Shown one piece after another: positions 1,184 through 57,620 of a stretch of 59,416 bases of DNA. The notes under the pieces were generated by a model. It ran no database searches. It saw only the letters and a list, made by a program, of their open reading frames with translations, and had not been told where the DNA came from. A program made the position numbers and the translations under genes. How positions within the stretch are numbered: the stretch's first letter is position 1; each line of letters begins with the position of its first letter. Source of the stretch: Clostridia bacterium (GTDB lineage Bacteria > CBDUZB01 > JAGLHV01); assembly GCA_030637025.1 (NCBI GenBank), contig DAOVVV010000014.1:1-59416 (forward strand). The letters are read 5' to 3'.

Positions 1184-1230
1184 TAACCAATTAAACAAAT
1201 TAAACCAATAAAACTAATTAACTGTCTTTT
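1184..1230. repeat. 9-mer tandem module (AAACCAATT family)
   Basis: TAACCAATTAAACAAATTAAACCAATAAAACTAATTAACTGTCTTT; relatives at 42708-42755, 43938-44200, 57514-57620. Confidence 0.75.
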
Positions 1231-1231
1231 T

Positions 1232-3184
1232 TTATTTAATAATCGAAAACTTACCATATTTTTTCGCTCCCTGTTCATTGGTAACCAAATAAACATAGAC
1301 CCCACTAACTACCCCTTCTCCCTGACTATTCTTCACATTCCATTCTACTGCGGAATTATTCCCTATTTCTTCTTTAGTTATCTTTTTTACTAATTCCCCG
1401 GATACTGTATATATTTTAATTTCCGGATTACCACGAAGATTAATAAACTTTATTGTACTATCTCCTTTACTGGGTTTAAACGGATTAGGAAAAACCTTGA
1501 CATTGGAAAGACTACTTGCCAAAAAAAGATAATCTTCCGCCCATTCATAAGCTCCAATATCATATCTGGAAGCTGGATTTGGAGTTCTTAAAACCCCATC
1601 AAAATCTCTACTAACAATACTACTTACAGCAAAAGTTCCTCTATCCCGAGCAGGACTTTCATCTTTAAGACGAAAATCATTCCTTTCTGAATCAACAAAT
1701 AAAGGATCTTCAGTGATAACATTAGTTGCCCAGGAAGGAGGAGAATCATTGCCATACCACACATCATAATTAGAAGTTCGCGTACCTATATATTCATTAT
1801 CACTATAATAAGCTGTTCCGCCTAAAGAATATATTATATTATTTTTCATTGTTATATTTACGAATTTTTTAAAATTTATCATTGATAACGATCCGAAACT
1901 ATAAACTGTATTATTATAGAATAATATATTTGGAGTTCCCTCCTTTTGAATGGTAAAATAAACAGGGCTTCTACTAAAAGCTGACCCGCAATTGTAAATA
2001 ATATTATTGTATATTCTAATATCTTCTACTCTTGAACTTATGTGAATACCTGAACATTCTAAAGAATAACACAAATTATTGTGGATATTTATTTCATCAG
2101 CGTATTTTTTCGGAACAGTTACATCTGTATCTCTGGGATGAATATAAATACCTGAAACATCAGGCCCTAAATCGTGAAATTCATTCCATCCTATATCGTA
2201 ATATTCAATGTTTTGCACACATTCATAAGTCCCAGCATAAATACCATGGTCATATTTATCATGTCCCCAATCATAAATATGACAACCAAAAATATCAAAA
2301 TGACTGACACAATCTGTCTTTATAGCTCCTGTTCTACATTCACCTAATGGATATTTTTTTTGTCCATCAATTTCTAATGCGATTATTCTATAATGGCCTA
2401 CATTACTCCTATCTATAACAATACCTGCTTTACACGCTAAAATTTTCAATTTTGCTATTACTGTATATCCTGTATTAGAATAATTATTTCTTATAGCTGC
2501 TCCTCCTGCAGTAGGAATAGCATCAAGTATAGGCATTTCTGAAGGATACCCAACAAAACCAGTATACCTGTTTACCGACCCATTGAAACCAGGATATAAA
2601 TATAAAATCGCTCCATATAAATCATGTTCATCATATATCCCGCTTCTAATATAAACTATATCCCCACCGCTGATCTGCCGTCTGGCATAAGCAATTGTCT
2701 CCCACGAACCATTATTTCCAATTCTAAAAGAACCATATCGTCCATTATTCTCATTATTTCCATCAGATTTAGCAACAAAATAAATATTGCCGTCTCTTAC
2801 AGTAAAAGGCAAACTATTGGAACTAATTCCATTAACTGTCACTTTTATAATGCCCGTCCCATCACTACAATCACTATTTAACCAAAAAGTTATTCTTTCC
2901 AAATCTACTGCATTACCTGCTGTCTCTCCCCATTCCGCATAATCTGAATTCTGCCTTAAATCCGTTCCGCAAACTGTAACATAATTGGCAGCTCTTATAG
3001 AACCAAAATTCCTTCCCCAAATAGTAACAGCACAACCCTTTGTAGGGCTTTCTTCCCACCCTGTTTTAGGCCCATCCACCAAATCAGAAAAACAAAGAAC
3101 CGGTACAGGGGTAGCCGCAAAAACAACCAAGCTTCTAACAATCACCAATAATAATGTAAAAACTATTAACTTCTTCATCATCAC
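1232..3184 (-). CDS. Secreted parallel beta-helix (pectin-lyase-like) protein with T9SS-like C-terminal domain
   Basis: Signal peptide; repeated IYNNIIYN/FYNNTVY/MKNNII; DPLFVD..DFRL..SPARDRG..DIGAYE; CTD NVKVFPNPFKP..IKIYTVSGELVK..W..SGVYVY. Confidence 0.8.
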   Translation of the reverse strand: MMMKKLIVFTLLLVIVRSLVVFAATPVPVLCFSDLVDGPKTGWEESPTKGCAVTIWGRNFGSIRAANYVTVCGTDLRQNSDYAEWGETAGNAVDLERITFWLNSDCSDGTGIIKVTVNGISSNSLPFTVRDGNIYFVAKSDGNNENNGRYGSFRIGNNGSWETIAYARRQISGGDIVYIRSGIYDEHDLYGAILYLYPGFNGSVNRYTGFVGYPSEMPILDAIPTAGGAAIRNNYSNTGYTVIAKLKILACKAGIVIDRSNVGHYRIIALEIDGQKKYPLGECRTGAIKTDCVSHFDIFGCHIYDWGHDKYDHGIYAGTYECVQNIEYYDIGWNEFHDLGPDVSGIYIHPRDTDVTVPKKYADEINIHNNLCYSLECSGIHISSRVEDIRIYNNIIYNCGSAFSRSPVYFTIQKEGTPNILFYNNTVYSFGSLSMINFKKFVNITMKNNIIYSLGGTAYYSDNEYIGTRTSNYDVWYGNDSPPSWATNVITEDPLFVDSERNDFRLKDESPARDRGTFAVSSIVSRDFDGVLRTPNPASRYDIGAYEWAEDYLFLASSLSNVKVFPNPFKPSKGDSTIKFINLRGNPEIKIYTVSGELVKKITKEEIGNNSAVEWNVKNSQGEGVVSGVYVYLVTNEQGAKKYGKFSIIK

Positions 3185-3217
3185 ACCTCCATTTTCTTGA
3201 TTAAGAAAATGTCTAAT

Positions 3218-3868
3218 TTAAATTAAATATTTATTTAGTTCCGGATTTATTTCCCTAATAAATTGCTTTAATATTTTTAAACTTTTATCTGGGCTCTGCT
3301 CAATAACAGCAGAAACTTTTACTAATGCACCTGCATTGCTTTTTGCCATTAATTTATTTTTCATCATTTGCCAACGTAAAGTTGTATAACTATTCGTTTG
3401 TAAACTTCCTATTTTAAAATAGTAAAGAACAAGTTTATCCTCTCTAGGACTTGTTGTTATAAATTTGGTAGCAAAAAAACTTTGTTGTTCATCTATTTCT
3501 ACTTTTTCTTTTTTTCTACTTGTAAGTCGCGAACCTTTCCCGGTTAAACAACTTTCCGGCAAATGGAAGGCTACTCGACTATCTTTGTAATAAACAATGG
3601 ACAAAAAAACTTTTTCTTCCTTAGAATTAATATATCTTCTAATTAGCACCTCTTCTGTCTCTAATATATTTTTAGTTTCATCATCTACTGAAATATATTC
3701 TCCCTTCCAGTCTCCAACATTCAAAGGTATTTTAGCAGATATGTTTACATTAGTTTTTTCTATATAAGGTCTACTCTGTACCCATAAAATAATACCTGCA
3801 AAAAAAACAAATATACCTATTAGAATAATATACCTTTTTTGAAATTTTTGCATCGTGATTTTTGTCAC
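3218..3868 (-). CDS. epsI: EpsI family exosortase-associated protein
   Basis: N-terminal TM, IPLNVGDWKG, FHLPESCLTGKG, VLYYF; directly downstream of the exosortase. Confidence 0.85.
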   Translation of the reverse strand: MTKITMQKFQKRYIILIGIFVFFAGIILWVQSRPYIEKTNVNISAKIPLNVGDWKGEYISVDDETKNILETEEVLIRRYINSKEEKVFLSIVYYKDSRVAFHLPESCLTGKGSRLTSRKKEKVEIDEQQSFFATKFITTSPREDKLVLYYFKIGSLQTNSYTTLRWQMMKNKLMAKSNAGALVKVSAVIEQSPDKSLKILKQFIREINPELNKYLI

Positions 3869-3869
3869 T

Positions 3870-4133
3870 CTCTTTCTTTGTCCCCTTTTTTATTTCTTTA
3901 CTCTGTGTCTTTTTCTTTTGTCTTTGTTTTGAATTTCGGATTTAATATTCGTTTTTTATTTCTTTAATTCATAACTTATAACTATTAACTCATAACTGTA
4001 GTTTCTGTCTATGGACTATGGACTGTCGACTATGGACTAAATCTGTTTTTGTTTTTAACTCATAACTAATAACTTATAACTTTCTGTTATTTGTTGCCTT
4101 TATCTATGGACTATCGACTGTGGACTATGGACT
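3870..4133. repeat. Mosaic intergenic repeat block (AGTCCAT and AGTTATA/G heptamer modules); includes one arm of a 117-bp inverted repeat
   Basis: 3951-4067 is the exact reverse complement of 22531-22647; heptamer modules at 4007-4039 and 4103-4133. Confidence 0.9.
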
Positions 4134-4967
4134 TTTGTTTGTCTTTCCCTTTCCCTCCAACTTCCCCCAACACAACCATAAACTAACAAAGGCAATAACA
4201 AATACTAAATATCCTGTGAAATCATGAAAAAGACCTTTGGTCATTTGACTCCCATAAATAAATACACCTAAAGATAATATAATTACTCGAATAATATTAG
4301 ACATTAAGGCAATCGGTATAGCTAAAGAAAAAAGTATAATTTTTTTGAACATAGTTGTTTTTGTTAAATAAGCAAAAATACTTCCCAAAGCCAACATTGA
4401 AATAAGGGAACGCAAACCACTGCAAGGATTTCCCACAACCAGACTGGCATTGGGAAAGAATATTTGAAACCCTTCATTCTTCATTGGTAATTTCATAAAT
4501 GTCTGTAAGATAAATACCGCACTCTTGGTAGCAAACATCTTCATCGGAAAACTGATGGCATTAATTGCTACTTTAGGAATAGGAATCATAAAAATCAAAA
4601 AAGCTAAAGGAAATAAAATTTTCTTAGTAATTTCCTTCCCATATAAAAACAAACTAATTCCAAAAACCAAAGACAAAATAGAAAAACCGCTTACAAAAAA
4701 TACTTCGGCTAACACACCCAACAGATGTATGAGTAGAGAAAAAATTATTAATCCTACTCCCCATAAATCATTTTTCTTGTTGATATTTTTTAATTGCTTT
4801 TTCCCAAGGAAAATTAAATATCCGGTAACAAAGGGAATCAAAAATCCATGCGAATAATAAGAGTCAGCGGCTACATATCTCTCGTAAAGCCAAACAAAAG
4901 TAGAACGATAAATTAATCCTATAAAAAATAACATCAACCCTAATTGAATAAATGTGTTTTTTTTCAT
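4125..4967 (-). CDS. xrt: Exosortase (EpsH-type transpeptidase)
   Basis: Multi-TM; YYSHGFLIP; catalytic Cys in NPCSGLRSL, Arg in NIIR, His in FHDFTG. Confidence 0.9.
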   Translation of the reverse strand: MKKNTFIQLGLMLFFIGLIYRSTFVWLYERYVAADSYYSHGFLIPFVTGYLIFLGKKQLKNINKKNDLWGVGLIIFSLLIHLLGVLAEVFFVSGFSILSLVFGISLFLYGKEITKKILFPLAFLIFMIPIPKVAINAISFPMKMFATKSAVFILQTFMKLPMKNEGFQIFFPNASLVVGNPCSGLRSLISMLALGSIFAYLTKTTMFKKIILFSLAIPIALMSNIIRVIILSLGVFIYGSQMTKGLFHDFTGYLVFVIAFVSLWLCWGKLEGKGKTNKSP

Positions 4968-4982: not shown

Positions 4983-5078
4983 AAAACAGTCACAAATAGT
5001 CATATACTCACTTCGTTCGTGTCACATATTGTCACACACTACCATCCTGTATAACTATGTTTGACTACTTACAACTAT
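4983..5078. repeat. Empty copy of the inverted AGTCA/TGACT arms that flank the four-helix-bundle gene at 11775-12146
   Basis: 4983-5036 resembles 11711-11765; 5041-5078 resembles 12180-12235. Confidence 0.8.
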
Positions 5079-5199
5079 TTTTTAACATTCCTTGACCTCT
5101 GTAAACCATTCCCCACAGGAAATACTATTTTCTCACCAATTTCCAAACTATTTTTTTATCTTACCCGCATGTTCTACAAATTTTTTCATAAAAAATACG

Positions 5200-9512: not shown

Positions 9513-9607
9513 CATCATAAATAGTCATATACGCACTTCTTTCCCATCATACCTTGTCATAAACTATGTTTGACTATTTTTTGACTATTGTCTGACTACT
9601 TATGACT
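9513..9607. repeat. Second empty copy of the AGTCA/TGACT inverted arms
   Basis: 9562-9607 matches 12190-12235 at 43/46 nt; left arm ATAGTCATATAC...TTGTCATA directly abuts it. Confidence 0.85.
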
Positions 9608-9625
9608 ATTATTGGTTTTATTCAC

Positions 9626-11643: not shown

Positions 11644-11665
11644 TTTTTACCCTCTAAACCCTGCT

Positions 11666-11767
11666 ATAGTCATAATTAAAATCGTCATATATAGTCTCAT
11701 GGTTATATTAAAAACCGTCATACATAGTCATATACTCGCTTTACTCGTGTCATAATATTGTCATAAC
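11666..11767. repeat. Downstream arm (AGTCA units) of four-helix-bundle cassette 1
   Basis: GTCATA recurring with about 10-11 nt period; inverted relative to 12180-12235. Confidence 0.8.
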
Positions 11768-11774
11768 AGAATTA

Positions 11775-12146
11775 TTATACAATAGCTGTTTTGCCTATAC
11801 AATTAATATAGTTATTGATTTTTATTTGTAATTGTTTGTATTTACTCAAGAAATGGTTTAAAATATTCTCTGTAATATAATTACGTTTTTTACTAAAAAG
11901 CATAAAATGTTTTATTTCTACCAGAGAACCCCTTGCCTGACGACAAAATTGAATATTCTCCTTATAATGAAAACGCCCATAGCCTTCAGCAATATTGGCT
12001 CCAACAGAGGTAACAGCTCTTCTTAATTGCGAAATTACATTAAATTTTTCATCAGAAGGAAATTTGTCTGTTAAATCATATATCCAACCTGCTAAATCTT
12101 CTGCTAATTTATATATTTCTAAATCATCAAAATCCTTTATCATCAT
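11775..12146 (-). CDS. Four-helix-bundle protein (23S rRNA IVS-protein / Avd-like family)
   Basis: FDDLEIYK, FPSDEKF, SQLRRAVTSVGANIAEGYGR, ARGSLVE. Confidence 0.9.
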   Translation of the reverse strand: MMIKDFDDLEIYKLAEDLAGWIYDLTDKFPSDEKFNVISQLRRAVTSVGANIAEGYGRFHYKENIQFCRQARGSLVEIKHFMLFSKKRNYITENILNHFLSKYKQLQIKINNYINCIGKTAIV

Positions 12147-12179
12147 CGTTCCCTTTATTATTAAATCCTTTATATTTTT

Positions 12180-12235
12180 ACCATTCTTTAACTATGTTTG
12201 ACTATCTTTTGACAATTGTTTGACTACTTATGACT
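12180..12235. repeat. Upstream arm (TGACT units) of four-helix-bundle cassette 1
   Basis: AACTATGTTTGACTATCTTTTGACAATTGTTTGACTACTTATGACT; overlaps the stop codon of the upstream gene. Confidence 0.85.
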
Positions 12236-19403: not shown

Positions 19404-20438
19404 TTATTCCTTAAAACCAAGATGACTTTTTGATTTTGCACTATCAATATCTTTTTTTGATAAATCCAAATATTTTAAAAATGTTTCTAAAGATTCTAAT
19501 TTTTCGCTATATTCTTCTTCTTTAGCTTTTTTTAATGCTTCTTCTTTGGTCATTTGACCTGCTCTTATCATTGCACTATATTTGGTGGTTTTTTCCCCAA
19601 AGCCCCATTTTTGGACTACCAGATAATTTTTCATAGGGGCAAATAAACAATCGATATGGTCGGTAGAGCCATCTTCCCGTGCCTGCCAATGAAGTTCTTT
19701 AGTTATGGTCCCTTTAATTTCACTATCTACCCAGGAAATATAATCAGGTAATGAAATCTGTTTTCTGTATCTTTTTAATGTAAAATGCTTGAGTCTTCTG
19801 ACAATTTTTTGCCAGTTAGTTTCCGGTAAAAAATCTTTTGCTTCTTCAGGACTTATCAAATTTCCTGCTATTCTTTTGAAAAGATTACTATTATAAGAAT
19901 ATATCTTCGCTCCCCGTGATTCTATCTGAGCAGAAAACCCGGAAACGATTAAAGGAACATCGTACTGTTCAGCCACCCTATGCACAGTTGCCCATATTCC
20001 CATATCACAAGCAAAACAAAATTGACCGGTTTTTAATAAAAATTCACGATACAATTTCTTCATTAATTTCCAGTTTGGTCCGTAACAAACATACCCCACA
20101 TCGGTTTTCTTAACTATATTATCAATGTTTTTTATTGCTGAAGGAGTACGCAATCCGTTATTAAAATTAACTGCTAAAACTTTAAGTTTATATTTTTCTT
20201 TACACAAATAAAGGGTATAGGAACTGTCTTTCCCCCCGCTAAAAGGAACAATACAATCATATCGTTTGTTTTGTTTTTTAGCCCAATTAATAATATTATC
20301 TAATTCCACCTCAAGTTTTTTATAATCTTTATTAAGATACTTTTCCTCATATTCCTTACACTTATTACAAACACCGTTCTTATCAAAAGTAATATCAGGG
20401 TAAGTTTCCGGTAATATACATCTTGTGCAACGGTTCAT
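19404..20438 (-). CDS. N-acetyl sugar amidotransferase (WbpG-like PP-loop protein)
   Basis: CTRCILPETYPDITFD..GVCNKC, YDCIVPFSGGKDS. Confidence 0.8.
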   Translation of the reverse strand: MNRCTRCILPETYPDITFDKNGVCNKCKEYEEKYLNKDYKKLEVELDNIINWAKKQNKRYDCIVPFSGGKDSSYTLYLCKEKYKLKVLAVNFNNGLRTPSAIKNIDNIVKKTDVGYVCYGPNWKLMKKLYREFLLKTGQFCFACDMGIWATVHRVAEQYDVPLIVSGFSAQIESRGAKIYSYNSNLFKRIAGNLISPEEAKDFLPETNWQKIVRRLKHFTLKRYRKQISLPDYISWVDSEIKGTITKELHWQAREDGSTDHIDCLFAPMKNYLVVQKWGFGEKTTKYSAMIRAGQMTKEEALKKAKEEEYSEKLESLETFLKYLDLSKKDIDSAKSKSHLGFKE

Positions 20439-20456: not shown

Positions 20457-20550
20457 ATAGTCCATAGTCCACAGTCGATAGTCCATAGACAAAGACAAAA
20501 ATAAAGTCAAAATTCAAAACAAAAGATAAAAAACTACAGACAAAGAATAT
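20457..20550. repeat. AGTCCAT heptamer module plus A-rich linker, downstream of four-helix-bundle gene 2
   Basis: Exact 31-mer AGTCCATAGTCCACAGTCGATAGTCCATAGA at 20459, 23923, 25602 and (reverse complement) 4103. Confidence 0.9.
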
Positions 20551-20573: not shown

Positions 20574-20927
20574 TTATTTAAGTGAATTACGCAATCCTTG
20601 AAGCATTTTAATAATCTCTTGAAGTTCATTATACAATTTTTTAAACTTATTTTCATTAATTATCTTTCGCTTTTTACTTAAATAAAGACAAGAAACAACT
20701 TCAATTGCTGACCTAATAGCATAACCAATAAATAGTCTAAACTCCGCATTTGTCTGACCAGTTGACCCTTCTGCAACATTTAAAGCAATTGAATCCGCTG
20801 CTCGCTTAATTTGCGAAGTCATAATATACAACTCTTCTTTAGGAAAATCTCTGGTTAATTCATGAATTTGAAAACTAAATTCTACAGATTTTCTCCACAC
20901 TTCTAACTTCTCAAACTTAAAGGCCAT
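20574..20927 (-). CDS. Four-helix-bundle protein (IVS / Avd-like), second paralogue
   Basis: FKFEKLEVWRKS, FPKEELY, SQIKRAADSIALNVAEGS, AIRSAIE. Confidence 0.9.
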   Translation of the reverse strand: MAFKFEKLEVWRKSVEFSFQIHELTRDFPKEELYIMTSQIKRAADSIALNVAEGSTGQTNAEFRLFIGYAIRSAIEVVSCLYLSKKRKIINENKFKKLYNELQEIIKMLQGLRNSLK

Positions 20928-21311: not shown

Positions 21312-22445
21312 CTACCGCAATAATAAGACATCGTACAACTTTTCTGTGTTTTCGGTCATTTTTTTTAAAGAAAAAAACTTTTCAATTCTTTTTCGGCCTG
21401 CCTGTCCCATTTTTTGAGCTAACTCTTTATTCTTTAGTAAACGCAGCATTGCCTTAGCTAACATTTCCGAATTAGCCGGTGGAACCAATATCCCTGTCTC
21501 ATTATCAACGACAACCTCCGGATTTCCTCCTACATTAGTAGCAACTACAGATTTACCTGCAGCCATAGACTCTAATATAGTATTGGAAAATCCTTCACTT
21601 AAAGAGGATAACACTGATATATCCATCACAGAAAGAAGTTCCGGAATATCAGAACGCTCACCGGTAAAAACAACATTGTCGGTAATTCTTAATTTTTTAG
21701 CTACTTCTAATGGATTATCTTTTCCCACATTTTTAAAAATATAACCAACGATTAAAAATTGCACCTCCGGTATTTCTTTTAAAACAATGGAAGCTGCCTC
21801 TAAAAAATACTTATGGCCTTTTATAGGGCGTAACCCGGCAATAATACCTACAACCGGGGCAATAGATTTAAATCCTAATTCTTTTTTTATACCCAAAATG
21901 TCTTGTTTTTTTGAAAATTTATTAATTTCTACACCGTTATAAATAGTATTTATTTTCTTGGGTAATATATTTTGTTTCTCAATGAGAATATTTTTTACTG
22001 CCTCTGAAACCGTAATTATTTTGTCAAATATAAAATTATTTATTAGTTTATAGAAAAAAATATGTCTTTTTTTTAATTTATAGCCCATATCTCTTCTGCT
22101 GGAAATGATAACCGGAACACCGGATAACTTAGCAATTATTCCACCCCAAAAATCAGAACCTTCATGATAAGTTACTACTATTTTAACTTTTTCTTTTTTT
22201 ATGAATTTTATTAATTTAATGCCTTCTCTTAATGCTTTGAACCCATAGATTTTTTTTACGCCTAAATCTTTAGTTGATATATCTTTTTGTCTCAGAATAT
22301 GTATTACTTTTCCCGAAGTTAAAATATACACTATTGGTTTATATTTTTTTTTATCCAACAGGGTAACAACTTCGTAAAGGTTTTTTTCCGCTCCTGCAAG
22401 ATTGGTAAAAGTGTCCATTATATATAAAATTGTGGTTTTTTTCAT
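21312..22445 (-). CDS. Glycosyltransferase family 4
   Basis: AGAEK, IYNGV, IKGHKYF, SEGFSNTILESMA. Confidence 0.9.
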   Translation of the reverse strand: MKKTTILYIMDTFTNLAGAEKNLYEVVTLLDKKKYKPIVYILTSGKVIHILRQKDISTKDLGVKKIYGFKALREGIKLIKFIKKEKVKIVVTYHEGSDFWGGIIAKLSGVPVIISSRRDMGYKLKKRHIFFYKLINNFIFDKIITVSEAVKNILIEKQNILPKKINTIYNGVEINKFSKKQDILGIKKELGFKSIAPVVGIIAGLRPIKGHKYFLEAASIVLKEIPEVQFLIVGYIFKNVGKDNPLEVAKKLRITDNVVFTGERSDIPELLSVMDISVLSSLSEGFSNTILESMAAGKSVVATNVGGNPEVVVDNETGILVPPANSEMLAKAMLRLLKNKELAQKMGQAGRKRIEKFFSLKKMTENTEKLYDVLLLR

Positions 22446-22473: not shown

Positions 22474-22820
22474 ACAGTCCATAGTCCATAGACAGAAACT
22501 ACAGTTATGAGTTAATAGTTATAAGTTATAAGTTATGAGTTAAAAACAAAAACAGATTTAGTCCATAGTCGACAGTCCATAGTCCATAGACAGAAACTAC
22601 AGTTATGAGTTAATAGTTATAAGTTATGAATTAAAGAAATAAAAAACAAATACTAAATTCAAAATAAAAAAATAACTACTAGATTCCTGCTTCCGCAGGA
22701 ATGACAGACTAAAAACAAAAACTACCCTCCCTTACCTTAATCCTTCCTCCTTATCCGCTTGAGGCGGAGCGGACAGGAATTTTTTTTAAATTCCTGGATT
22801 CCTGCTTCCGCAGGAATGAC
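22474..22820. repeat. Mosaic repeat block: heptamer modules, 117-bp inverted-repeat arm, two GATTCCTGC..GCAGGAATGAC palindromes, a TCCGC..GGCGGA element
   Basis: Internal duplication 22474-22528 / 22573-22627; palindromes at 22682-22705 and 22797-22820. Confidence 0.9.
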
Positions 22821-22920: not shown

Positions 22921-23895
22921 TTATTCTGTACCAAATTTAAAAGTAAGTGCTACTCTGTGAGTAACACCTAAATCACCGTAATCTACAAAAGCATAATCAA
23001 AATTTACTTCTGCTACAGGCATAAAAGCAATGTCGACTTCTTTTAAACCAATACCCAGTCCCATACTTATTCCATTGCCTATATCGTTGTCTGAATCATA
23101 TCCTAACCTTAACTTAAATACCTTATCTATCTTCCATTCAGCTCCTATATTAGTATAATAATTACTATATTTAGGTTTATTAAAATCTGCGGCTAATAAA
23201 AATTTATCCTCTAAAATTCTGCCGGCAATACCCAATTTAATATTAAATGGCAGGGAATCTTCCTGGCTCAAAAATTTATAGCTATTACCCATATTTTGTA
23301 ATGTAATTCCTAAACTTATCCCTTCCCTCCGGGGATAATAAAGCAAACCTGCATCAAAAGCATAAGTTTCACCATTTTCATTTTGTATTTCCTGTTTTAT
23401 ATGTTTACCAGTTACACCGAAAAAAGTATCTTTTATGATTTTTTTCCCGTAAGAAAGAACAATTATTCTATCCTTTACGGTAAAATCAGAAGTTCTATTT
23501 CCCCATATATCCCGGCCGGGAATATCTCCTGAATTCAAAAGAATTAAACTTAATCCCAAAGCTCCCATTTCATCAACATTAGAAGCTCTCACTCCCCTCA
23601 ACGGATAAACAATATTTATAAAATTATAGTTTAAATCTTGCAGCCATTGATATTGGCCGGGACTAACTTCTATTTTCCATAATTGTCCTAAACCTGCCGG
23701 ATTCCAGGAAATAGCATTATTATCGTCGGCTACGGCACAAAAAGCCCCTCCCATACCTGCTGCCCGCACTCCCATTCCTATTTCCAGGGATTGAGCACCG
23801 GAAGTACCTGCACGATAATGAGTAGACCAACCGTAAGAACAAAAAGTGAGAATAATTATTAGGGTGCTAATTAAAAGATATACTTGTTTTTTCAT
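22921..23895 (-). CDS. PorV/PorQ-like outer-membrane beta-barrel
   Basis: GVRAAGMGGAFCAVADD..WNPAGL; C-terminal DYAFVDYGDLGVTHRVALTFKF; start moved to ATG 23895 (SD GGAG) because the track's extension is repeat DNA. Confidence 0.85.
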   Translation of the reverse strand: MKKQVYLLISTLIIILTFCSYGWSTHYRAGTSGAQSLEIGMGVRAAGMGGAFCAVADDNNAISWNPAGLGQLWKIEVSPGQYQWLQDLNYNFINIVYPLRGVRASNVDEMGALGLSLILLNSGDIPGRDIWGNRTSDFTVKDRIIVLSYGKKIIKDTFFGVTGKHIKQEIQNENGETYAFDAGLLYYPRREGISLGITLQNMGNSYKFLSQEDSLPFNIKLGIAGRILEDKFLLAADFNKPKYSNYYTNIGAEWKIDKVFKLRLGYDSDNDIGNGISMGLGIGLKEVDIAFMPVAEVNFDYAFVDYGDLGVTHRVALTFKFGTE

Positions 23896-23921
23896 TGTTT
23901 TCTCCAACTTAATATGAAAAT

Positions 23922-24003
23922 TAGTCCATAGTCCACAGTCGATAGTCCATAGACAAAGACAAAGCAACTAAAAACTTATAAGCAGAGCAAGCTCTGCGAC
24001 TAC
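23922..24003. repeat. AGTCCAT module followed by a GTAG-type REP-like hairpin
   Basis: 31-mer at 23923-23953; GCAGAGCAAGCTCTGCGACTAC ending at 24003. Confidence 0.8.
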
Positions 24004-24033: not shown

Positions 24034-24399
24034 TTACCGGATGATTACTATTTTTCCGGTGGCTTTTTCACCTTTTAAATTCGTAATTAAATAAAGATAT
24101 ATTCCACTGCCTACTTTTTCTTCTGAATTATTGGTCACATCCCAAGCAACCATACCACTAGTATTATCAGTTATACTTTCATCGGTGATTAATTTGCCTT
24201 TTAGATTGTAAATTTTTATGGTTACCTCTTCGGTTAAATGGCTAAAAATCACCTGGTTATGGCCTTTACTTAAAATACAGGGGTTAGGATAAACAATTAC
24301 ATTGTTTAAATTATCAGCTACTCCCTGGGAAAATAAGAAATTCGCTCCTAATAATGTGATTAAACAAATAGAAAAAATTAATAATGAAATTTTTTTCAT
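24034..24399 (-). CDS. Signal peptide plus a stand-alone T9SS-like C-terminal domain
   Basis: NVIVYPNP..IKIYNLKGKLI..WDVTN..GSGIYLYLI..GKIVIIR begins right after the signal peptide. Confidence 0.8.
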   Translation of the reverse strand: MKKISLLIFSICLITLLGANFLFSQGVADNLNNVIVYPNPCILSKGHNQVIFSHLTEEVTIKIYNLKGKLITDESITDNTSGMVAWDVTNNSEEKVGSGIYLYLITNLKGEKATGKIVIIR

Positions 24400-24418: not shown

Positions 24419-24760
24419 TAAATTTCAAACTTCAAATTTCAAAATCCAAAATTTTAAAAAAAAACAACTAATAACTATCCACGGGCGTCATGAATGTCGC
24501 CCCTACAATTCTAAATCCAAAATTCAAAGCAAAAAAACAACTACTGGATTCCTGCTTCCGCAGGAATGACAGAATTTAAAACCAAGAATGACCCGCCTTA
24601 CTGACTGGAGGACAGGCAAATTCAAAATACAAAATTCTAAATTCAAAAGAAAACCTGATAAATCAGGCAACTACAAACTGAAAAACAACTATAGATTCCT
24701 GCTTCCGCAGGAATGACAGGCAAATAAAAACTTATAGGCAGGCTAAGAGCCTGCAGCTAC
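24419..24760. repeat. Mosaic block of REP-like palindromes and AAATT(C/T) heptamers
   Basis: GTAG-type hairpins at 24481-24506, 24654-24674, 24738-24760; GATTCCTGC palindromes at 24547-24570 and 24694-24717. Confidence 0.85.
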
Positions 24761-24773: not shown

Positions 24774-25547
24774 CTATTTATAATAATAATCGTCGGTGTA
24801 TTCCAGGGGTTTATAAAAATATCTAGGAACATAATGTTCCACCTGAGTAAAAATAAACCCTAGCATGTTTGCATGCACCTGTCTCAATAAATCCTGAGCG
24901 TGTAAAACATGTGCTCTTTGAATATGATTTGCCCTTACTACCATTATTACACCATCCACAAGATGAGCTAAAATATGAGTATCAGTCACCGGTAAAACAG
25001 GAGGTGCATCGATAATTATCACGTCATACTTTGATTTTAATAGTTCCAGTAAATTTTTCATTCTCCCTGAAGACAATAACTCACTGGGATTGGGTGGATT
25101 ATCCCCATGGGTTATTATATCTAAATTTGATATCTTGTTTTTTTGAATAATCATATCTAAAAGAACTTCTCCGGAAAGAATTTCCGACAACCCGGGTAAC
25201 TGTTTTAATCCCATTAGTTGATGTACCGTTCCTTTTCGCATATCACAATCCAACAGGCATATTTTTTTTTCTTCGTCTCTTTTAGCCATAACAATAGCTA
25301 AATTTACCGCAGTAACTGATTTTCCTTCTTTATGAGCGGTACTGGTCACTACTAATGTTTTAAGCGGTGTTTCAGGGTTTATCTGACGAATATGGGTGCG
25401 GATAATGCGATATTGTTCCGCTAGTATTGACTCCGGGTCATAATAAGTAACTATTTCCGGAGCAATACCCGAACCGTCCGTTCTTTGGGCAACATATAAT
25501 CCTAATAAATCATCTGTTGTGGTTTTTTTCTTGGTTTTTTTAAACAT
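24774..25547 (-). CDS. CpsD/CapB-family BY tyrosine kinase (split Wzc catalytic subunit)
   Basis: EQYRIIRT, Walker A EGKS, DCDMRK, IIIDAPP, C-terminal Tyr cluster YTDDYYYK. Confidence 0.9.
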   Translation of the reverse strand: MFKKTKKKTTTDDLLGLYVAQRTDGSGIAPEIVTYYDPESILAEQYRIIRTHIRQINPETPLKTLVVTSTAHKEGKSVTAVNLAIVMAKRDEEKKICLLDCDMRKGTVHQLMGLKQLPGLSEILSGEVLLDMIIQKNKISNLDIITHGDNPPNPSELLSSGRMKNLLELLKSKYDVIIIDAPPVLPVTDTHILAHLVDGVIMVVRANHIQRAHVLHAQDLLRQVHANMLGFIFTQVEHYVPRYFYKPLEYTDDYYYK

Positions 25548-25600: not shown

Positions 25601-25926
25601 TAGTCCATAGTCCACAGTCGATAGTCCATAGATAGAGACAAAGAATAAATAATAACTAAATTCAAAATCTAAAATTCTAAATTCAAAACAAAGACAACTA
25701 CTGGATTCCTGCTTCCGCAGGAATGACCCGCCTTATCCGCCTAAGGCGGAGCGGACACTCGCTTTGCTCCTGAAAAATAACTTATTCGCAGGCTGAAGCC
25801 TGCGGCTACCTAAAAACATTCTATCCGATGGAATGACAAAATATTTTAAATCAACAAAACTAATTTAAAAAACACAATAGATTCCTGCTTTCGCAGGAAT
25901 GACAGAATTTAAAACATGGAATGACA
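25601..25926. repeat. Mosaic repeat block
   Basis: 31-mer at 25602; palindromes at 25704-25727 and 25880-25903; TCCGCCTAAGGCGGA; GTAG-type hairpin at 25787-25809. Confidence 0.85.
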
Positions 25927-32221: not shown

Positions 32222-32410
32222 AAAAAATAAATCCGAAATTCTAAACAAAGGATAAATCCCCCTAACCCCCTTTTCCAAAGGGGGGAACTCAATGAGGACT
32301 GTCGCTTTGCTCCAGCAAAACAAAAGACAAAAAATAGTCCATAGTCCACAGTCCATAGATAAAGACAACAAAATAAATTATAAATCCGAAATAAAGATAA
32401 AAAACTAACT
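32222..32410. repeat. Mosaic repeat block
   Basis: CCCCCTTT..AAAGGGGG hairpin; GACTGTCGCTTTGCTCCAG (inverted copy at 57428-57446); AGTCCAT module at 32334-32359. Confidence 0.75.
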
Positions 32411-33967: not shown

Positions 33968-34121
33968 AGAGTTCTGCAAAATAACAGATTCTGTCATTCC
34001 GCTCCGCCTCATCCGCCTTAGGCGGAGGATGATGCGGAATCTATAATGTTCTTAAATATCAATAGATTCCTGCTTTCGCAGGAATGACAATAAAGCTAAA
34101 AAGGCTATTTTGCAGAAGTCT
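33968..34121. mobile_element. Second copy of the 783-912 MITE, with an extra nested TCCGCC..GGCGGA palindrome
   Basis: Same TIRs and body; ACTT of copy 1 is replaced by TCCGCCTCATCCGCCTTAGGCGGAGGAT. Confidence 0.8.
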
Positions 34122-40936: not shown

Positions 40937-41257
40937 TTAACCCTCTTCTTTTTTTGCACTAATCTGAGCCCATCGTCCTCCTGTTTTTTTCCAGCCTTCC
41001 ATTTTAAAGTGCACAGATCTTACTTGAGGAATAGCCAATATTGCTAATTCTAAATTTTTAAGAATACCCATTACGACCGTCAGAACACCGGCATCATCCT
41101 GCCCCTTACCGGTAAAAGTTAAAACTCCTTTTAAATTAACCACCCCTTTGACTGTACTAATTCTGAGTTTACCCGGATCTATCCACCGTTTTACTAACTC
41201 TCTTTTGACTGCAGTATTGATTTTCCAGTCATCTTTTACACTTGTAGGACCTGCCAT
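40937..41257 (-). CDS. Hypothetical protein, possibly BON-domain-like
   Basis: SD GGAGG; DWKINTAVKREL..LRISTVKGVVNLKG..IPQVRSV. Confidence 0.65.
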   Translation of the reverse strand: MAGPTSVKDDWKINTAVKRELVKRWIDPGKLRISTVKGVVNLKGVLTFTGKGQDDAGVLTVVMGILKNLELAILAIPQVRSVHFKMEGWKKTGGRWAQISAKKEEG

Positions 41258-42538: not shown

Positions 42539-42707
42539 CTTGCTCTCTCCTAAAATAATTTATATTTTTTCAATTTATAAATCACAACAAGTCCCGAATA
42601 TATCTACTCAATACTTTGATTAGACTCAGTACAAGTTCATTGAGCGACTACAAACTTTTTGTTTTATCGATGAACTGTCTTTTCCGACTCTCTTTTTCTT
42701 TTATATT

Positions 42708-42985
42708 TTAACCAATCCAACGAATAAAACCAATCTAAACTAATTCCACCGTCTTTAATCTAAATCCCCCTACAAAGGGGGAACATTGTTTTGTCTTTAT
42801 TTTTTATTCTTTTGTCTTTATCTGTTATCTGTAATCTATGGACTAATTTTTGTCTTGAGTTCTTTAACTTTGTGCCTCTGTGCCTTGATGCCTTTGTGCC
42901 TGTCTTTGTCTGTAATCTGTGGACTATGGACTGTCGACTATGGACTTTTGTTTCTTTTTTTAATCTATGGATTATCTGATGCCTT
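42708..42985. repeat. Mosaic repeat block (9-mer, 8-mer TGCCTTTG, 7-mer TGGACTA, C/G hairpin)
   Basis: 9-mer at 42708-42755; 8-mer at 42873-42904; 7-mer at 42916-42945. Confidence 0.85.
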
Positions 42986-43086: not shown

Positions 43087-43851
43087 TTACTCTTCTATTA
43101 CTAAATTCATTCCATCATAAGCAGCAATAACCCTCGTTTTTAATTTTTCTTCCAGATGTTTTGCTACTTTATAGGGATTAGCTTTAAGCATTGACATTCC
43201 GAAATGAGTAAGAATAGTTATTTTGGGTTTACGATTAATGATGATTTTTTCTACATCATCAACACTTAAATGTTTAATCTTTTTTTTCTCTTCATAACGA
43301 ACAACATTAATTACCAGAATTTCTCCAGGATAAAATTTTTCCAGATTATCAAAATAAAGAGTGTCGGCAATAAGAGAAAGAAGAACTTTATTTTTTTCTT
43401 CAAAATTTAATCCATAAGCTTCTACACCATGAATGTGTTCTACCGGGGTATTAAACACCAAATTGCCTACTTTGTATTTCTTTCCTTTTTTTAAAAGCTC
43501 AATTTTTTCTACATAATTTCGTATGTATTTCAAAATTACCGGATCTTCTTCCAAAGCATCCCGGGGAACAAAAACCGTTCCTCTTTTTTTAAATCCCCCC
43601 TCAGTCATTGCTTCAATCATTATATTTATATCCGTAGAATGATCTATGTGCCGATGGGTAAGAATAATGGCATCGATTTTTGCCGGGTCAAGACGAGGCC
43701 TGCTGGAAAAACATTTAACCAGGGTTCCCGGACCCGGATCTACCACAATGTTTGTCCCTTCCCATTCAATCCATAAACCTCCTGAAGCCCGTAGTTGTTT
43801 TGCAACTACAAATCGGGCTCCCGCCGTACCTAAAAACTTTATTTTTTTCAT
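43087..43851 (-). CDS. MBL-fold metallo-hydrolase
   Basis: FLGTAG, VDPGPG, THRHIDH, ADT, LTHFG. Confidence 0.9.
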   Translation of the reverse strand: MKKIKFLGTAGARFVVAKQLRASGGLWIEWEGTNIVVDPGPGTLVKCFSSRPRLDPAKIDAIILTHRHIDHSTDINIMIEAMTEGGFKKRGTVFVPRDALEEDPVILKYIRNYVEKIELLKKGKKYKVGNLVFNTPVEHIHGVEAYGLNFEEKNKVLLSLIADTLYFDNLEKFYPGEILVINVVRYEEKKKIKHLSVDDVEKIIINRKPKITILTHFGMSMLKANPYKVAKHLEEKLKTRVIAAYDGMNLVIEE

Positions 43852-43937: not shown

Positions 43938-44283
43938 GGGTTAAAAGACGATGCATTAGTTTTATTGGTTTAGATTATTTTAAATTGGTTAGAAAAAATA
44001 AAAGAAAAAGACGGTTAAAAGACGGTTCAATTGGTTTAGATTGATTTTATTCGTTGGATTGGTTAAAGACAAAAGATATAAAGACGGTTAAAAAACGGTG
44101 CATTGGTTTTATTGGTTTAGATTAGTTTAGATTGGTTAGAAAAAAATAAAAGAAAAAGACGGTTAAAAGACAGTTCAATTGGTTTAGATTAGTTAAAAGA
44201 TAAAAGAAATTAGTTTTAAAAAAATTTGAAGTTTGCTTGTCCGCCAGTCAGTGAGACGGGAAGTTGGAATTTGGGAGTTTGAA
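43938..44283. repeat. Array of 9-mer (ATTGGTTTA) modules with AAAGACGGTT linkers, then a heptamer run with a nested palindrome
   Basis: Four modules in a higher-order duplication of about 145 bp; inverted relatives at 42708 and 57514. Confidence 0.85.
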
Positions 44284-46848: not shown

Positions 46849-46849
46849 A

Positions 46850-54727: not shown

Positions 54728-54836
54728 TACAATTATTCCTTTTGTTATAGCTGTTTTTCTAATAATCTATATTTTTTTACTGCTTCGTCATTAATAAAAT
54801 TGTTCTCTATTCTTTACTAACTATTATTTCAGTAAT

Positions 54837-54912: not shown

Positions 54913-54958
54913 CAAGTGGAACTTTTAAGTTTATACTGATACTGCCGGGGAGGAACTA

Positions 54959-57100
54959 ATGGCTAAAATGATTTTTAAAAATTATAATGGAAATTACCAG
55001 TTAAGCATTCAAAATGCACAGGATTTAGAAAATATTCAAATGCTCGATGAAAGCTGCTGGGTTGCTACCAGCATTCCCATAGATAATATTAATTGTGATG
55101 TTCTCTTTGCCAAACATGTAGATAGCGACCATAACGGCCGAATACGCACTGACGAACTAAAGGAAGCTCAGAGTTGGCTTTTTCATTTTCTCAAAAACAG
55201 GGAAGACCTGGGTAATGATACCTTAAAACTAAGTAATATAGATACCTCTCATCCGGAAGGACAAAAACTACTTAGTGCCGCCGAATTAATTCTCCACAAT
55301 CTTGATTCTTCCAACACCGAAAAAATTACCCTCCATCAGGTACAAAATATACAAAAAATCATGGCTAACGGAATAAATAATGGTGACGGTATCATTCCGC
55401 CGGAAGCAATAGATGATCCCGATGCTGTACAATTTCTTAAAGTTGTCATTGAAACAATGGGCTCAGTGATGGACGCCAGCAACAAAGTCGGTATTACTCA
55501 AAATCATCTCACCGAATTTTTCCAGGAAGCCGAGGCTTATCTTACATGGAAAGCACAGGGTGAAATTGCAGAAGGGGAAAAAACAACTAAAATTATGCCC
55601 TGGGGAAAAGATACTCCCCAGGCTTACCAAATAATTACTGCTTTAGACGAAAAAATAGAAGAGTATTTTACACAATGCTCCCTGCTTGACTTTGACCCGC
55701 AAGCATCTGAAAAAATAAAAATTCGGCAGGAAGAAATAAATAAGCTTGATTCTACCAATCATATTGATATAGAATCGTGGCTTAAAAACGCTCCTTTAGC
55801 TTTACCCGGGACAGACGGTATTCTGGATCTGGAAGGGAAAATCAATCCTGCATACAAAAATTCTTTGTCTGAATTAAAAGAAAAAGTCCTCAAACCCGCT
55901 CTGGGAAAATCAACAGCCCAGCTGAATCAAAATAAATGGAACAAAGTAAAGGCAATATTTCTTCCTTATCGGGAATGGATGGAAAATAAACAAGGCCCAC
56001 GGGTAGAAGGATTAGGACGTGATAAGCTCAAAGCTTTTCTTGAGGGGCCTTACAAAGAACAATTGACCCAATTCATGATCAAAGACAAGACTGTAGCAGA
56101 AGAACTGGACCAGATACACAATGTAGAAAAACTCGTTCTTTATCAAAAATGGCTTTTGGAATTAGCTAACAATTTAGTAAGTTTTTCTCCTATATATAAC
56201 CCGGACCTTCATTCACTCTTTGAAATAGGCAAACTAATAATAGACAGCAAAGAGTTAACTTTTACCATAAGGGTACCTGATAGACAAAAACATAAAGAGA
56301 TAGCAAAAAACAGCTATATCTATCTACTTTATGTAGAAGTTAGCCGCAGACAAGACAAAGGAGATAAATTTGAAATCGCTGCAGCAGTAACCAGCGGCGA
56401 AGCAGACGGATTGCGAATAGGTAAACGGGGTATTTTTTTAAGTATCGACGGGCAGGAATGGGATGCAGAAGTAGTGGATATTATCACTAATCCCATCAGT
56501 CTCTGGGAATCAATAAAAGCACCTTTTCAACAATTATCTAATTTTATAGAAAAACAAATAGATAAATTTAATAAATCTCAGTATACTGCACTGGAAAGCG
56601 GTATAGGTAAAAGTTTTTCCAATATGGGAAAACCAAATGCCGGCGGCGGTTCATCAACAGCAATACGGGATTTATTACTGGGGGGAGGTATTGCCATTGC
56701 TGCTTTAGGTTCGGCTTTTGCTTATATTACCAAAGCTCTCTCCCAGGTGAAAATCATTCATGTTATTCTTACTATATTGGGAATAGCATCAGTAATCATT
56801 ATCCCCAGTATTATCATGGGATTCCTGCGGTTACGGCGTAGAAATATGTCCGTTGTTTTGGAAGCATCCGGCTGGGCAATAAATCCGCCTATGCGCCTGA
56901 CCCGAAAATTAGGAAGGATTTTTACTCATAAAGCATCTTTTCCTAAAGATTCCTGTAAAGAACACCGGGATATTATAAAACGATTTGCGCGAAAATTTGC
57001 CGACAGTTCTTTCAGTTTATCCAGACTAGTAATTACCCTTTCAATTGCCCTGCCTTTGCTCTGGTTAGTTATTTGGGTAATTATCCATATCCTTTATTAA
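54959..57100 (+). CDS. Large hypothetical membrane-anchored protein with EF-hand-like motifs
   Basis: SD GGAGG; DSDHNGRIRTDE, NGDGII; three C-terminal hydrophobic helices. Confidence 0.75.
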   Translation: MAKMIFKNYNGNYQLSIQNAQDLENIQMLDESCWVATSIPIDNINCDVLFAKHVDSDHNGRIRTDELKEAQSWLFHFLKNREDLGNDTLKLSNIDTSHPEGQKLLSAAELILHNLDSSNTEKITLHQVQNIQKIMANGINNGDGIIPPEAIDDPDAVQFLKVVIETMGSVMDASNKVGITQNHLTEFFQEAEAYLTWKAQGEIAEGEKTTKIMPWGKDTPQAYQIITALDEKIEEYFTQCSLLDFDPQASEKIKIRQEEINKLDSTNHIDIESWLKNAPLALPGTDGILDLEGKINPAYKNSLSELKEKVLKPALGKSTAQLNQNKWNKVKAIFLPYREWMENKQGPRVEGLGRDKLKAFLEGPYKEQLTQFMIKDKTVAEELDQIHNVEKLVLYQKWLLELANNLVSFSPIYNPDLHSLFEIGKLIIDSKELTFTIRVPDRQKHKEIAKNSYIYLLYVEVSRRQDKGDKFEIAAAVTSGEADGLRIGKRGIFLSIDGQEWDAEVVDIITNPISLWESIKAPFQQLSNFIEKQIDKFNKSQYTALESGIGKSFSNMGKPNAGGGSSTAIRDLLLGGGIAIAALGSAFAYITKALSQVKIIHVILTILGIASVIIIPSIIMGFLRLRRRNMSVVLEASGWAINPPMRLTRKLGRIFTHKASFPKDSCKEHRDIIKRFARKFADSSFSLSRLVITLSIALPLLWLVIWVIIHILY

Positions 57101-57293
57101 CCCCTATTATTATACTAGAACTATGACTCTTAAATTGTTGACCGTGTTCAAGAATAAACCACATAAAGCTTGCCACAAACAAAATAACTACAATAAAAAT
57201 AGTTAAAATTCTATTAATTCCTAAATAAATATTTAAGAAGTAATATAAAGCTAACATACCAAAAAAACTTAAAAATAAATTCATTATCCCCAC
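57081..57293 (-). CDS. Possible small two-TM protein
   Basis: Two hydrophobic stretches only; overlaps the convergent gene by 20 nt. Confidence 0.3.
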   Translation of the reverse strand: MGIMNLFLSFFGMLALYYFLNIYLGINRILTIFIVVILFVASFMWFILEHGQQFKSHSSSIIIGVNKGYG

Positions 57294-57305
57294 TTTTTAA
57301 AAAAA

Positions 57306-57620
57306 GTAATGTCAAAAATATTCAATCTCGCCTCAGCGAAGCATGGGTAATTCTTTTATATTTGTATAATTGTAAACTATTTTTTGCTATTCGCAGTCCT
57401 TTGTCTTTTAACTTTGTCTTTATTTTTCTGGAGCAAAGCGACAGTCTCGCCGGTCAATAAGGCGGATACCTTGATGTCTTTGTGCTTGTATGTTGTTTTT
57501 ATCTGTAATCTTTAAACCAATTCAACCAATTAAACTGTCTTTTAACTGTCTTTATATCTTTTGTCTTTAACCAATTCAACCAATAAAACCAATTTAAACT
57601 AATTGAACCGTCTTTTATCT
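57306..57620. repeat. Mosaic repeat block (MITE left end, CTGGAGCAAAGCGAC, 8-mer and 9-mer modules)
   Basis: 57306-57353 resembles 34129-34176; 57514-57617 resembles the reverse complement of 44015-44118. Confidence 0.8.

Follow-up and report, generated by a model that had tools for sequence, protein, structure and literature searches.

In a 59,416-base stretch of DNA from a Clostridia bacterium (contig DAOVVV010000014.1, GenBank assembly GCA_030637025.1; this whole stretch is referred to here as the window), we observe that the intergenic DNA is a mosaic of dispersed copies of a few composite elements, each with a tandemly repeated core (mostly of 7-nt units, also of 8, 9 and 11 nt) set in linkers, and with hairpins resembling repetitive extragenic palindromic (REP) sequences located between them. 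These arrays are real and were copied as units. Genes encoding four-helix-bundle (4HB) proteins, two of which are present in the window, lie between inverted arrays much more often than other genes do; one of the window 4HB genes is a clean 424-nt indel in the center of an inverted element of 11-nt units that also exists empty; and related 4HB proteins carry related units, with the homology between cassettes stopping at the arrays. Our tentative reading, which we regard as possible though somewhat short of probable, is that the arrays are the arms, gene-less derivatives and solo remnants of 4HB cassettes similar to the intervening sequences (IVSs) of rRNA genes, shuffled by slippage and recombination.

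Copied arrays and inverted arrays around 4HB genes

Arrays were called with Tandem Repeats Finder (TRF; period 6-11, at least 3 copies, score of at least 40), which returned 20 rows covering 602 bases, 585 of them intergenic and 17 coding. In the concatenated intergenic DNA, arrays took up 563 bases, compared with a mean of 0.6 (maximum 31) in 100 dinucleotide-preserving shuffles. Seventeen of the arrays have period 7, with three heptamer families present at 9, 4 and 4 sites, i.e., A (AGTCCAT/TATGGAC), B (AGTTATA, of the ATAACTT type) and C (AAATTCA, of which TTCAAAA is a rotation). The mosaic also contains one array of the 8-mer TGCCTTTG, a family based on the 9-mer ATTGGTTTA, and an AGTCA-based 11-mer family at 5052, 9563 and 12187; positions of the other families are given in Table 1. 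All nine sites and six unit families named in the original prediction, which had been made from the sequence alone, were found by TRF and by reading of the sequence. Its rule of four to five units per array was roughly right, with the exception that A arrays span 1 unit (at 42836), 2.3 units, and 3.6 to 4.6 units, and the lower bound of four is partly an effect of the detection threshold, as short arrays go undetected.

Repeated exact 18-mers cover 1,379 bases of the window, 1,246 of them intergenic. For example, a stretch of 117 nt (3951-4067) is identical to the opposite strand near 22.5 kb, and the inverted pair 3927-4081 / 22517-22671 is 95% identical over 155 nt. The composite of an AGTCCAT array, a linker and an AGTTATA array is tandemly duplicated at both ~4 kb and ~22.5 kb (repeat family D12; 98-nt period, 22474-22633), and A arrays with one of two imperfect unit orders, together with identical flanks, are present at at least five sites (families D2, D3 and D6). 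The recurrence of the same imperfect unit order and flanks at dispersed sites demonstrates that these arrays are not independent products of slippage but were copied as composites, in agreement with the earlier argument that simple slippage is insufficient to explain exact dispersed copies. The fixed polarity described at that time was also confirmed, with all aligned AGTCCAT arrays having an AGA(C/T)A-type linker after them on their own strand, and with the AAAGAC(G/A)GTT linkers of the 9-mer family co-oriented with their arrays in 4 of 4 regions; this polarity is a simple consequence of each module having been copied, together with its linker, from one composite element. The linkers are A/C-rich (T/G-rich on the other strand).

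Several of these copies enclose genes. The 155-nt inverted pair encloses 18.4 kb of a polysaccharide block, and could mediate its inversion. Inverted 9-mer composites at 42707-42756 and 44018-44067 enclose a single gene of the metallo-beta-lactamase fold (43087-43851), and those at 44016-44118 and 57515-57617 enclose 13.4 kb that includes the only run of plus-strand genes in the window.

Both 4HB proteins of the window match PF05635 (111.9 and 120.3 bits) and TIGR02436 (101.6 and 115.2 bits, cut-off 24), and their solved relatives 2GSC and 2RLD each have five chains deposited. Both genes lie between protein-coding genes, not in 23S rRNA. The 424-nt indel of the first, cassette 1, consists of the open reading frame (ORF), a 43-nt leader and a 9-nt trailer, and is central in an inverted 11-mer element with arms at about 11650-11765 and 12190-12235, the left half of the element reading (GTCATA-N5)n and the right half (N5-TGACTA)n. 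Alignment of this element with two gene-less copies (Table 1) ties the 11-mer family to cassette 1, and the copy at 5.0 kb keeps a piece of the leader, which favors loss of the gene over its insertion. When compared with miniature inverted-repeat transposable elements (MITEs), the 11-mer elements have paired ends of ~14-18 nt in folds, and clear duplication at their borders was not seen. Within the 11-mer element, at 11740-11765 and at 5020-5040, two 7-nt direct repeats with an 11-bp (or 10-bp) spacing lie upstream of polysaccharide genes, and these may resemble the direct-repeat sites of OmpR/PhoB-type regulators. The AGTCCAT family is tied more loosely to the second gene (4HB gene 2), in that an array reading TATGGAC lies 86 nt past the stop codon of this gene. 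The closest relatives of this gene among the matches listed are at locus L083, where an AGTCCAY arm precedes the ATG by 18 nt, and at locus L086, where a TATGGAC arm follows the stop by 7 nt, and these two arms together make an inverted pair. The AGTTATA, AAATTCA, 8-mer and 9-mer families have no 4HB gene of their own in the window.

We analyzed the regions on either side of 21 4HB genes, i.e., the two in the window, three at genome loci (one at L058 and two at L076) and 16 at plasmid loci found by tblastn, by aligning the 160 nt upstream to the reverse complement of the 160 nt downstream and calculating z against 200 shuffles. This analysis demonstrated that 12 of the 21 4HB genes have z above 5, compared with 2 of 218 non-4HB ORFs from array-rich loci. 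Six of the 12 have z above 14 (L076a 30.5, L076b 21.8, L131 19.7, L121 18.6, L133 14.7 and L058 14.3), and the other six are L126 (11.6), L132 (9.7), L136 (6.6), L128 (6.2), L135 (6.0) and L130 (5.2). When the plasmid genes were grouped by protein, 9 of 12 clusters were positive, and a tenth, L122, has inverted arrays that the flank window missed, one of them overlapping the end of the ORF. At L123 the arrays on both sides of the 4HB gene are direct, not inverted. At lag 7, 24 of 28 matches were reached in 15 of 42 4HB flanks, compared with none of 42 at another lag, and the best lag at L130 and L136 is 8. Lag-7 arrays are also present in 65 of 436 control flanks (15%), so that the specific trait is inverted pairing and not the presence of an array. 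Two control ORFs lie between inverted arrays, a peptidase S9 gene (L035 173-2077, z 19.9) and an ORF of 404 aa (L042 273-1484, z 9.6), indicating that non-4HB cargo exists.

Every 4HB gene has its own unit, e.g., GTAGGGA, CAGGTGA, GGGTGTA, GGGAAAA, GAGTGCT, CGTTGTT or CAGGAGT. Where 4HB proteins from different genera are 80% identical, i.e., L129 of Nostoc with L135 of Stanieria, and L124 of Aulosira with L128 of Nostoc, they have a common heptamer family, and for protein pairs at 65-72% identity the unit family is partly common. The DNA of L129 and L135 is alike over only ~450 nt (420-872 and 435-860), ending in the arrays, and the flanks beyond are unrelated. These cassettes are located within operons, mostly in the orientation of the host operon; for example, at ribonucleotide reductase beta/alpha, at an HlyD-like gene/ABC transporter, and in cas operons (L123, L126 and L130; cas6/cas4 in two species and cmr2/cmr3), where they look like intruders and not cas components. 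The presence of 4HB genes in cas loci was noted previously, without explanation (PMC3936711). In 50 kb of plasmid pANA02, all period-7/35 arrays belong to the family found at the flanks of its 4HB gene, and one of them is a solo array at a distance of 650 nt, one gene off. The same replicon has a 9-mer tandem array (L138 4100-4139) between the avd gene of a diversity-generating retroelement (DGR) and a reverse transcriptase (RT) gene. The Azospirillum locus L133 is a true rRNA IVS, its flanks being 23S rRNA and its arms heptamers.

When 185,579 species genomes were scanned for three AGTCCAT-type units, at least 120 loci were identified, and the matches listed include Bacteroidota, Cyanobacteria, Acidobacteriota, Verrucomicrobiota, Planctomycetota, Chloroflexota, Gemmatimonadota, Omnitrophota and candidate-phyla-radiation (CPR) groups. 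The closest DNA among these matches is in unclassified metagenome-assembled genomes (MAGs; L001, L004, L017, L026, L110 and L111), which have the same repeat families; only repeats match between the window and the loci fetched from its relatives. Further arrays near the listed matches have period 7 in 156 of 220 cases, period 6 in 4 and period 8 in 11, with very diverse units. In 46 foreign loci of at least 7 kb, an array is present about every 4 kb, with clustering within 250 bp, although 14 loci have no further array; arrays of 4 units (59 of 154) are the most frequent, followed by arrays of 5 units (42 of 154). Shared horizontal transfer is not needed to explain AGTCCAT-type units in so many phyla, as neighboring units are very diverse and recurrence of such a unit is expected with only ~1,170 heptamer classes. 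Two genes contain a heptamer array within their coding sequence, namely polA of a Saccharibacteria MAG (L012 4001-4033) and metH of a Flavobacterium MAG (L006 4001-4024).

Hairpins, genes and coordinates in the window

The REP-like hairpins of the mosaic include family H1, a 23-nt hairpin with 10 copies (9 on the plus strand) and compensatory changes in the stem, in which most copies have only TAG or TGG before the stem; further hairpin families are also present between tandem modules. One 92-nt direct repeat that includes an H1 hairpin (821-912 and 34030-34121) is 97% identical over copies 33 kb apart. Hairpins with a GTAG tag number 7, compared with a mean of 1.8 (maximum 6) in shuffles, and three of these after gene ends, one of them (24738..24760) just past the end of ORF 24774-25547, may double as terminators. 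When A arrays were folded alone they did no better than shuffles (z -1.3 and -1.4), and single arrays as self-contained hairpins were therefore dropped. A scan of 19-35 kb for promoter and terminator consensus sequences gave shuffle-level counts (66 compared with 62.3, and 14 compared with 11.1).

The window is ~32% G+C, with most genes on the minus strand, and comprises 50,997 coding and 8,419 intergenic bases (14%). It contains a locus for exosortase/EpsI and polysaccharide synthesis, one PorV/PorQ-family protein and several others that have sorting domains for type IX secretion (T9SS), in addition to two-component regulators, SerRS, PEPCK and PurC. By Rfam scan its sole RNA gene is a tRNA-Ser, and it has no rRNA. 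The PorV/PorQ match of ORF 22921-23967 begins at residue 55, and an AGTCCAT array lies inside the first 15 codons, so that the true start is probably further downstream. The first C array, at 24420, ends 20 nt ahead of a start codon at 24399.

Table 1. Arrays, hairpins and 4HB genes located in the window, with strand and the basis or context of each assignment
Feature	Position	Strand	Basis or context
A array, (TATGGAC)x4.4, order TATGGAC-TATGGAC-TGTCGAC-TATGGAC	4009..4039	+	TRF, sequence
A array x4.3, order TATGGAC-TATCGAC-TGTGGAC-TATGGAC; overlaps stop of ORF 4125-4967	4104..4133	+	TRF, sequence
A array x4.6; 18 nt upstream of ORF 19404-20438 start, beside AGGAGG ribosome-binding site	20457..20488	-	TRF, sequence
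A array, short form, 2.3 units; 30 nt upstream of ORF 21312-22445 start	22476..22491	-	TRF, sequence
A array x4.4, within the tandemly duplicated A-linker-B composite	22559..22589	-	TRF, repeat family D12
A array x4.4, then linker GACAAAGACAAA	23922..23952	-	TRF, repeat family D2
A array x4.4; 53 nt upstream of ORF 24774-25547 start	25601..25631	-	TRF, families D2, D3
A array x3.6	32334..32358	-	TRF, sequence
A array x3.9; extra single unit at 42836-42846	42917..42946	+	TRF, sequence
Two B arrays (3971-3997, 4056-4082) interleaved with A array	3971..4082	+	TRF; inverted family I1
Two B arrays (22503-22545, 22601-22627) interleaved with A array	22503..22627	-	TRF, sequence
Three C arrays (24420, 24507, 24618), hairpin modules between	24420..24648	+	TRF, sequence
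C array x4.4	25658..25688	+	TRF, sequence
8-mer array, TGCCTTTG type; module also in relative L017	42870..42901	+	TRF, sequence
9-mer array x4.1 with AAAGACAGTT linker	1185..1221	-	TRF, sequence
9-mer composite, inverted partner of 44018-44067 (92%)	42707..42756	-	Inverted family I6
9-mer composite, (ATTGGTTTA)n with AAAGACGGTT linkers, 73-nt higher-order period x3.3	43939..44185	+	TRF; D8, D11
9-mer composite, inverted partner of 44016-44118 (103 nt, 83%)	57512..57617	-	TRF; I2
Gene-less 11-mer element, ~14 nt matching cassette 1 leader	4990..5080	-	Fold z -3.1
Gene-less 11-mer element (GTCATA... / ...TGACTA)	9519..9612	-	Outer ends pair in fold, z -2.6; D9, D10
4HB cassette 1, 424-nt indel with ORF 11775-12146 (TIGR02436/PF05635)	11766..12189	-	Alignment of three 11-mer elements
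4HB gene 2	20574..20927	-	TIGR02436, 115.2 bits
H1 hairpin copies	857, 22683..22705, 22798, 24548, 24695, 25705, 25881, 29509 (-), 29544, 34066	+ except 29509	
GTAG-tagged hairpins, T-rich tail after	23982-24003, 24738-24760, 25787-25809	-	3' of gene ends, gene strand

Explanations for the origin of the arrays

If the arrays derive from IVS-like 4HB cassettes, the tandem cores would be the arms of small cassettes of ~0.42-0.45 kb, and the window would contain full cassettes, gene-less miniature derivatives and solo remnants. Co-transcription of both arms would, by analogy with rRNA IVSs, produce a long stem with the gene in its loop, which RNase III could cut. Tandem arms might be favored in that any unit can pair with any other unit, and the stem would survive indels; the arms may lengthen or shorten by slippage in unit steps, and recombination at shared linkers could produce both the module mosaics and the solo arms.

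Several observations weigh against this reading. Nine of the 21 4HB genes fall below a z of 5, i.e., both window genes and those at L122, L124, L129, L123, L127, L125 and L134. The arms of cassette 1 pair modestly (flank z 3.3; whole-cassette fold z -1.7, with the ends paired), and 4HB gene 2 has no upstream arm (flank z 0.3). The AGTCCAT, AGTTATA, AAATTCA and 8-mer arrays of the window have no local inverted pairs and occur in both orientations relative to genes, and a custom hidden Markov model (HMM) run on the six-frame translation detected no decayed 4HB ORF beside the solo arrays (best other match, E 0.83). Loci L058, L076, L083 and L086 were found via the AGTCCAT-type pattern, and their array type is not independent evidence; for L083 and L086 only the protein similarity to gene 2 is independent. 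Arrays are far more numerous than 4HB genes: among the matches listed, a 4HB gene is present at 4 of 120 array loci, with full 4-kb flanks available in only 80. The association of repeats with 4HB genes proposed in the original prediction stands when viewed from the gene side, by the frequency of inverted flanks, and is weak from the array side. In addition, Xanthomonas has abundant heptamer arrays of ~4 units without an evident stem partner (PMC4692102).

The sparsity of 4HB genes, with 116 of 120 array loci among the matches listed having none, and the occurrence of an array about every 4 kb would fit ordinary long simple sequence repeats (SSRs), produced in place by slippage that favors units of 7 nt, with later spread between intergenic regions through gene conversion or segmental duplication, and with 4HB cassettes inserted into, or tolerated in, existing arrays and having no tie of origin or function to them. 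We consider this explanation rather unlikely, although heptanucleotides are the commonest long SSR class, for which slippage has been proposed (Mrazek 2007, via PMC4679880), 156 of the 220 other foreign arrays have period 7, with very diverse units, and the exactly central location of the window 4HB gene in an element also found empty fits insertion into a hairpin loop. Slippage alone gives no account of the same imperfect unit order and flanks at many sites, and accounts neither for the oppositely oriented flanks of the same unit (12 of 21 compared with 2 of 218) nor for 80% identical 4HB proteins sharing a unit across genera where the outer DNA is unrelated, while the leader piece in the empty 5.0-kb copy argues for gene loss and not insertion. 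A different function for the same layout, which we think improbable, is that the arrays are cis-acting DNA or RNA sites for multimeric proteins, either pentameric 4HB paralogues, each specific for its own unit and with one subunit per unit, or proteins of the Csp, S1 or CsrA type, which would amount to a regulatory code spread over 5' leaders and the ends of genes. The modal size of 4-5 units (foreign loci; four in Xanthomonas, PMC4692102) is in keeping with the five-chain 4HB crystals, even if the lower limit of four is in part a matter of detection; units track 4HB protein similarity; the arrays at 20457 and 24420 abut ribosome-binding sites, as TAACTGA repeats do (PMC4679880); and in Nostoc and E. 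coli, constructs from which heptamer repeats had been deleted had altered reporter activity (bioRxiv 10.1101/2022.06.06.494920). However, arrays in both orientations and in convergent gaps (57.1-57.6 kb) are unfit for a strand-specific RNA site, and the inverted layout at 4HB genes, together with the proven RNase III stem of rRNA IVSs, points to base-pairing.

Two further explanations require machinery that our searches did not detect. Movement of the whole mosaic in trans as miniature DNA of the type of REPs and bacterial interspersed mosaic elements (BIMEs), by a REP-associated tyrosine transposase (RAYT) or other transposase encoded elsewhere in the genome, would fit the 10 copies of H1 with compensatory stem changes, the excess of GTAG-tagged hairpins, the mobilization of GTAG REPs that is attributed to RAYTs (PMC3733652) and the BIME-like pattern of hairpins and linkers, but is very unlikely, as the tandem modules are non-palindromic and without the tag, target-site duplications were not seen at module borders, and no RT, HUH, Y1 or GIY-YIG enzyme was present among the 47 window ORFs scanned, three of which (40937-41257, 54959-57100 and 58651-59280) have no family match. 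A Pfam scan of 110 array-neighbor ORFs at 36 foreign loci (L001-L036), out of 313 ORFs selected within 1.5 kb of arrays, likewise found no RT, transposase, HUH or GIY-YIG gene, but housekeeping genes and one PIN/DUF2281 pair. We give the least credence to RNA-templated copying, in which Avd-like 4HB proteins would assist an RT in writing arrays into intergenic DNA, a route that the original prediction had called conceivable while correctly stating that the window has no RT. The 4HB proteins are distant Avd homologues, an excised stem-loop RNA containing the gene is a conceivable template, and the cyanobacterial plasmids with 4HB cassettes also have RT genes, though not adjacent to them, but the 4HB matches to the DGR Avd model NF033474 are weak (25.4 and 17.3 bits, E 1.4e-5 and 4.4e-3) and fail its cut-off of 80; feature tables show no RT adjoining any of the 21 4HB genes; and no template/variable pair was found among the 13 direct-repeat families of at least 45 nt in the window. 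The RNA-templated route is therefore unsupported, and on the same findings a DGR was rejected; a dedicated copy/insert mechanism of some other kind, as inferred more generally in the original prediction, is possible. A CRISPR array was also rejected, as units are 7-11 nt and abutting, and CRISPR needs repeats of 24-48 nt with unique spacers of like size.

Compared with the reading of the arrays as parts of IVS-like cassettes, a bolder version is a long shot: arrays and 4HB (S23p/TIGR02436) genes would be two halves of an unrecognized selfish cassette across many phyla, with the arrays as its ends, and with the pentameric 4HB protein as a sequence-specific recognition or mobility factor, one subunit per unit and each paralogue with its own unit, perhaps acting with a host enzyme or even, Avd-like, a host RT. 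The solo arrays, which number in the hundreds and include short tandemly repeated repetitive (STRR) sequences and long simple sequence repeats (LSSRs), would be its footprints or trans-acting sites.

We know of no origin or function for heptanucleotide arrays, and to our knowledge the S23p 4HB family, first seen in 23S rRNA IVSs and now in many genomes and cas loci, has no role assigned. These two old puzzles may be one, and the finding of inverted arrays at non-rRNA 4HB genes, with the unit traveling with the protein, makes both testable. It also serves as a warning for annotation, in that 4HB genes inside operons for cas, ribonucleotide-reductase or polysaccharide functions may have intruded there without belonging to these systems.

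Comparison with known systems

The window mosaic is a further case of a known, unexplained class, the heptanucleotide arrays of the LSSR, STRR and TAACTGA types, which have been recognized since the work on STRR sequences of cyanobacteria. In most prokaryotic genomes, heptanucleotides outnumber every other class of long SSR (Mrazek 2007, via PMC4679880). TAACTGA direct repeats, mixed with other heptamers, are present in Beggiatoaceae, Cyanobacteria and Bacteroidetes and were reported near ribosome-binding sites (MacGregor 2015, PMC4679880), and are similar to the window arrays in having 7-nt units in sets of 2-6, intergenic and often upstream of start codons, and several unit families per region, scattered over distant phyla (PMC4679880). 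The window unit AGTTATA matches TAACTGA at all but the sixth position, which is variable (PMC4679880), and AAATTCA is a rotation of the TTTTGAA/TTCAAAA heptamer listed for Nostoc PCC 7120 (bioRxiv 10.1101/2022.06.06.494920). Unlike these cases, the window arrays are frozen imperfect copies with fixed flanks, dispersed as composites and tied to REP-like hairpins, and neither paper connects its arrays with 4HB genes. The GGGAATC arrays of Xanthomonas and GGGGA(C/T)T arrays of Nostoc are also intergenic, with mostly four units, some inverted pairs, and a unit number that differs between close strains; they can form G-quadruplexes, whereas the window units are not G-rich (Rehm 2015, PMC4692102).

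The hairpins of the window share with REPs a short, extragenic, multicopy nature, a location after gene ends and a mosaic with linkers, and the GTAG tag seen in some may be comparable; GTAG-tagged REPs are a known superfamily whose mobilization by RAYTs is thought likely (Di Nocera 2013, PMC3733652). The window differs in that most of its repeat mass is tandem and non-palindromic, and in the absence of a RAYT among the 47 scanned ORFs. The combination of hairpins with linker motifs in a mosaic, as known from enterobacteria, is the BIME pattern. Avd of DGRs, which works with an adjacent RT and a template repeat and forms pentamers, is similar to the window 4HB proteins in its distantly related four-helix-bundle fold, and differs in the failed Avd model and the absence of an RT among the window ORFs scanned.

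Apart from the paper on the Coxiella IVS, our literature searches, which did not cover subscription papers, gave no report that connects non-rRNA 4HB genes with heptamer arrays at their flanks, and the cassette link outside rRNA appears to be new. A close parallel is the 23S rRNA IVS itself, as known from Coxiella and Leptospira, whose S23p ORF belongs to the same PF05635/TIGR02436 family as the window 4HB genes (PMC4990558). In Coxiella this IVS has 428 nt and a 28-bp terminal stem that RNase III cleaves, and the count of its tandem heptamers differs from strain to strain (Warrier 2016, PMC4990558). Its size is similar to the 424-nt window indel and the ~450 nt shared by L129 and L135, and its layout, with complementary termini of tandem heptamers and the ORF in the loop, is also that of the Azospirillum rRNA copy at L133 and corresponds to the inverted flanks found at 12 of the 21 4HB genes. 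The window copies differ in lying between protein-coding genes of a polysaccharide locus, with cassette 1 having 11-nt units and modest pairing, and gene 2 having one arm only.

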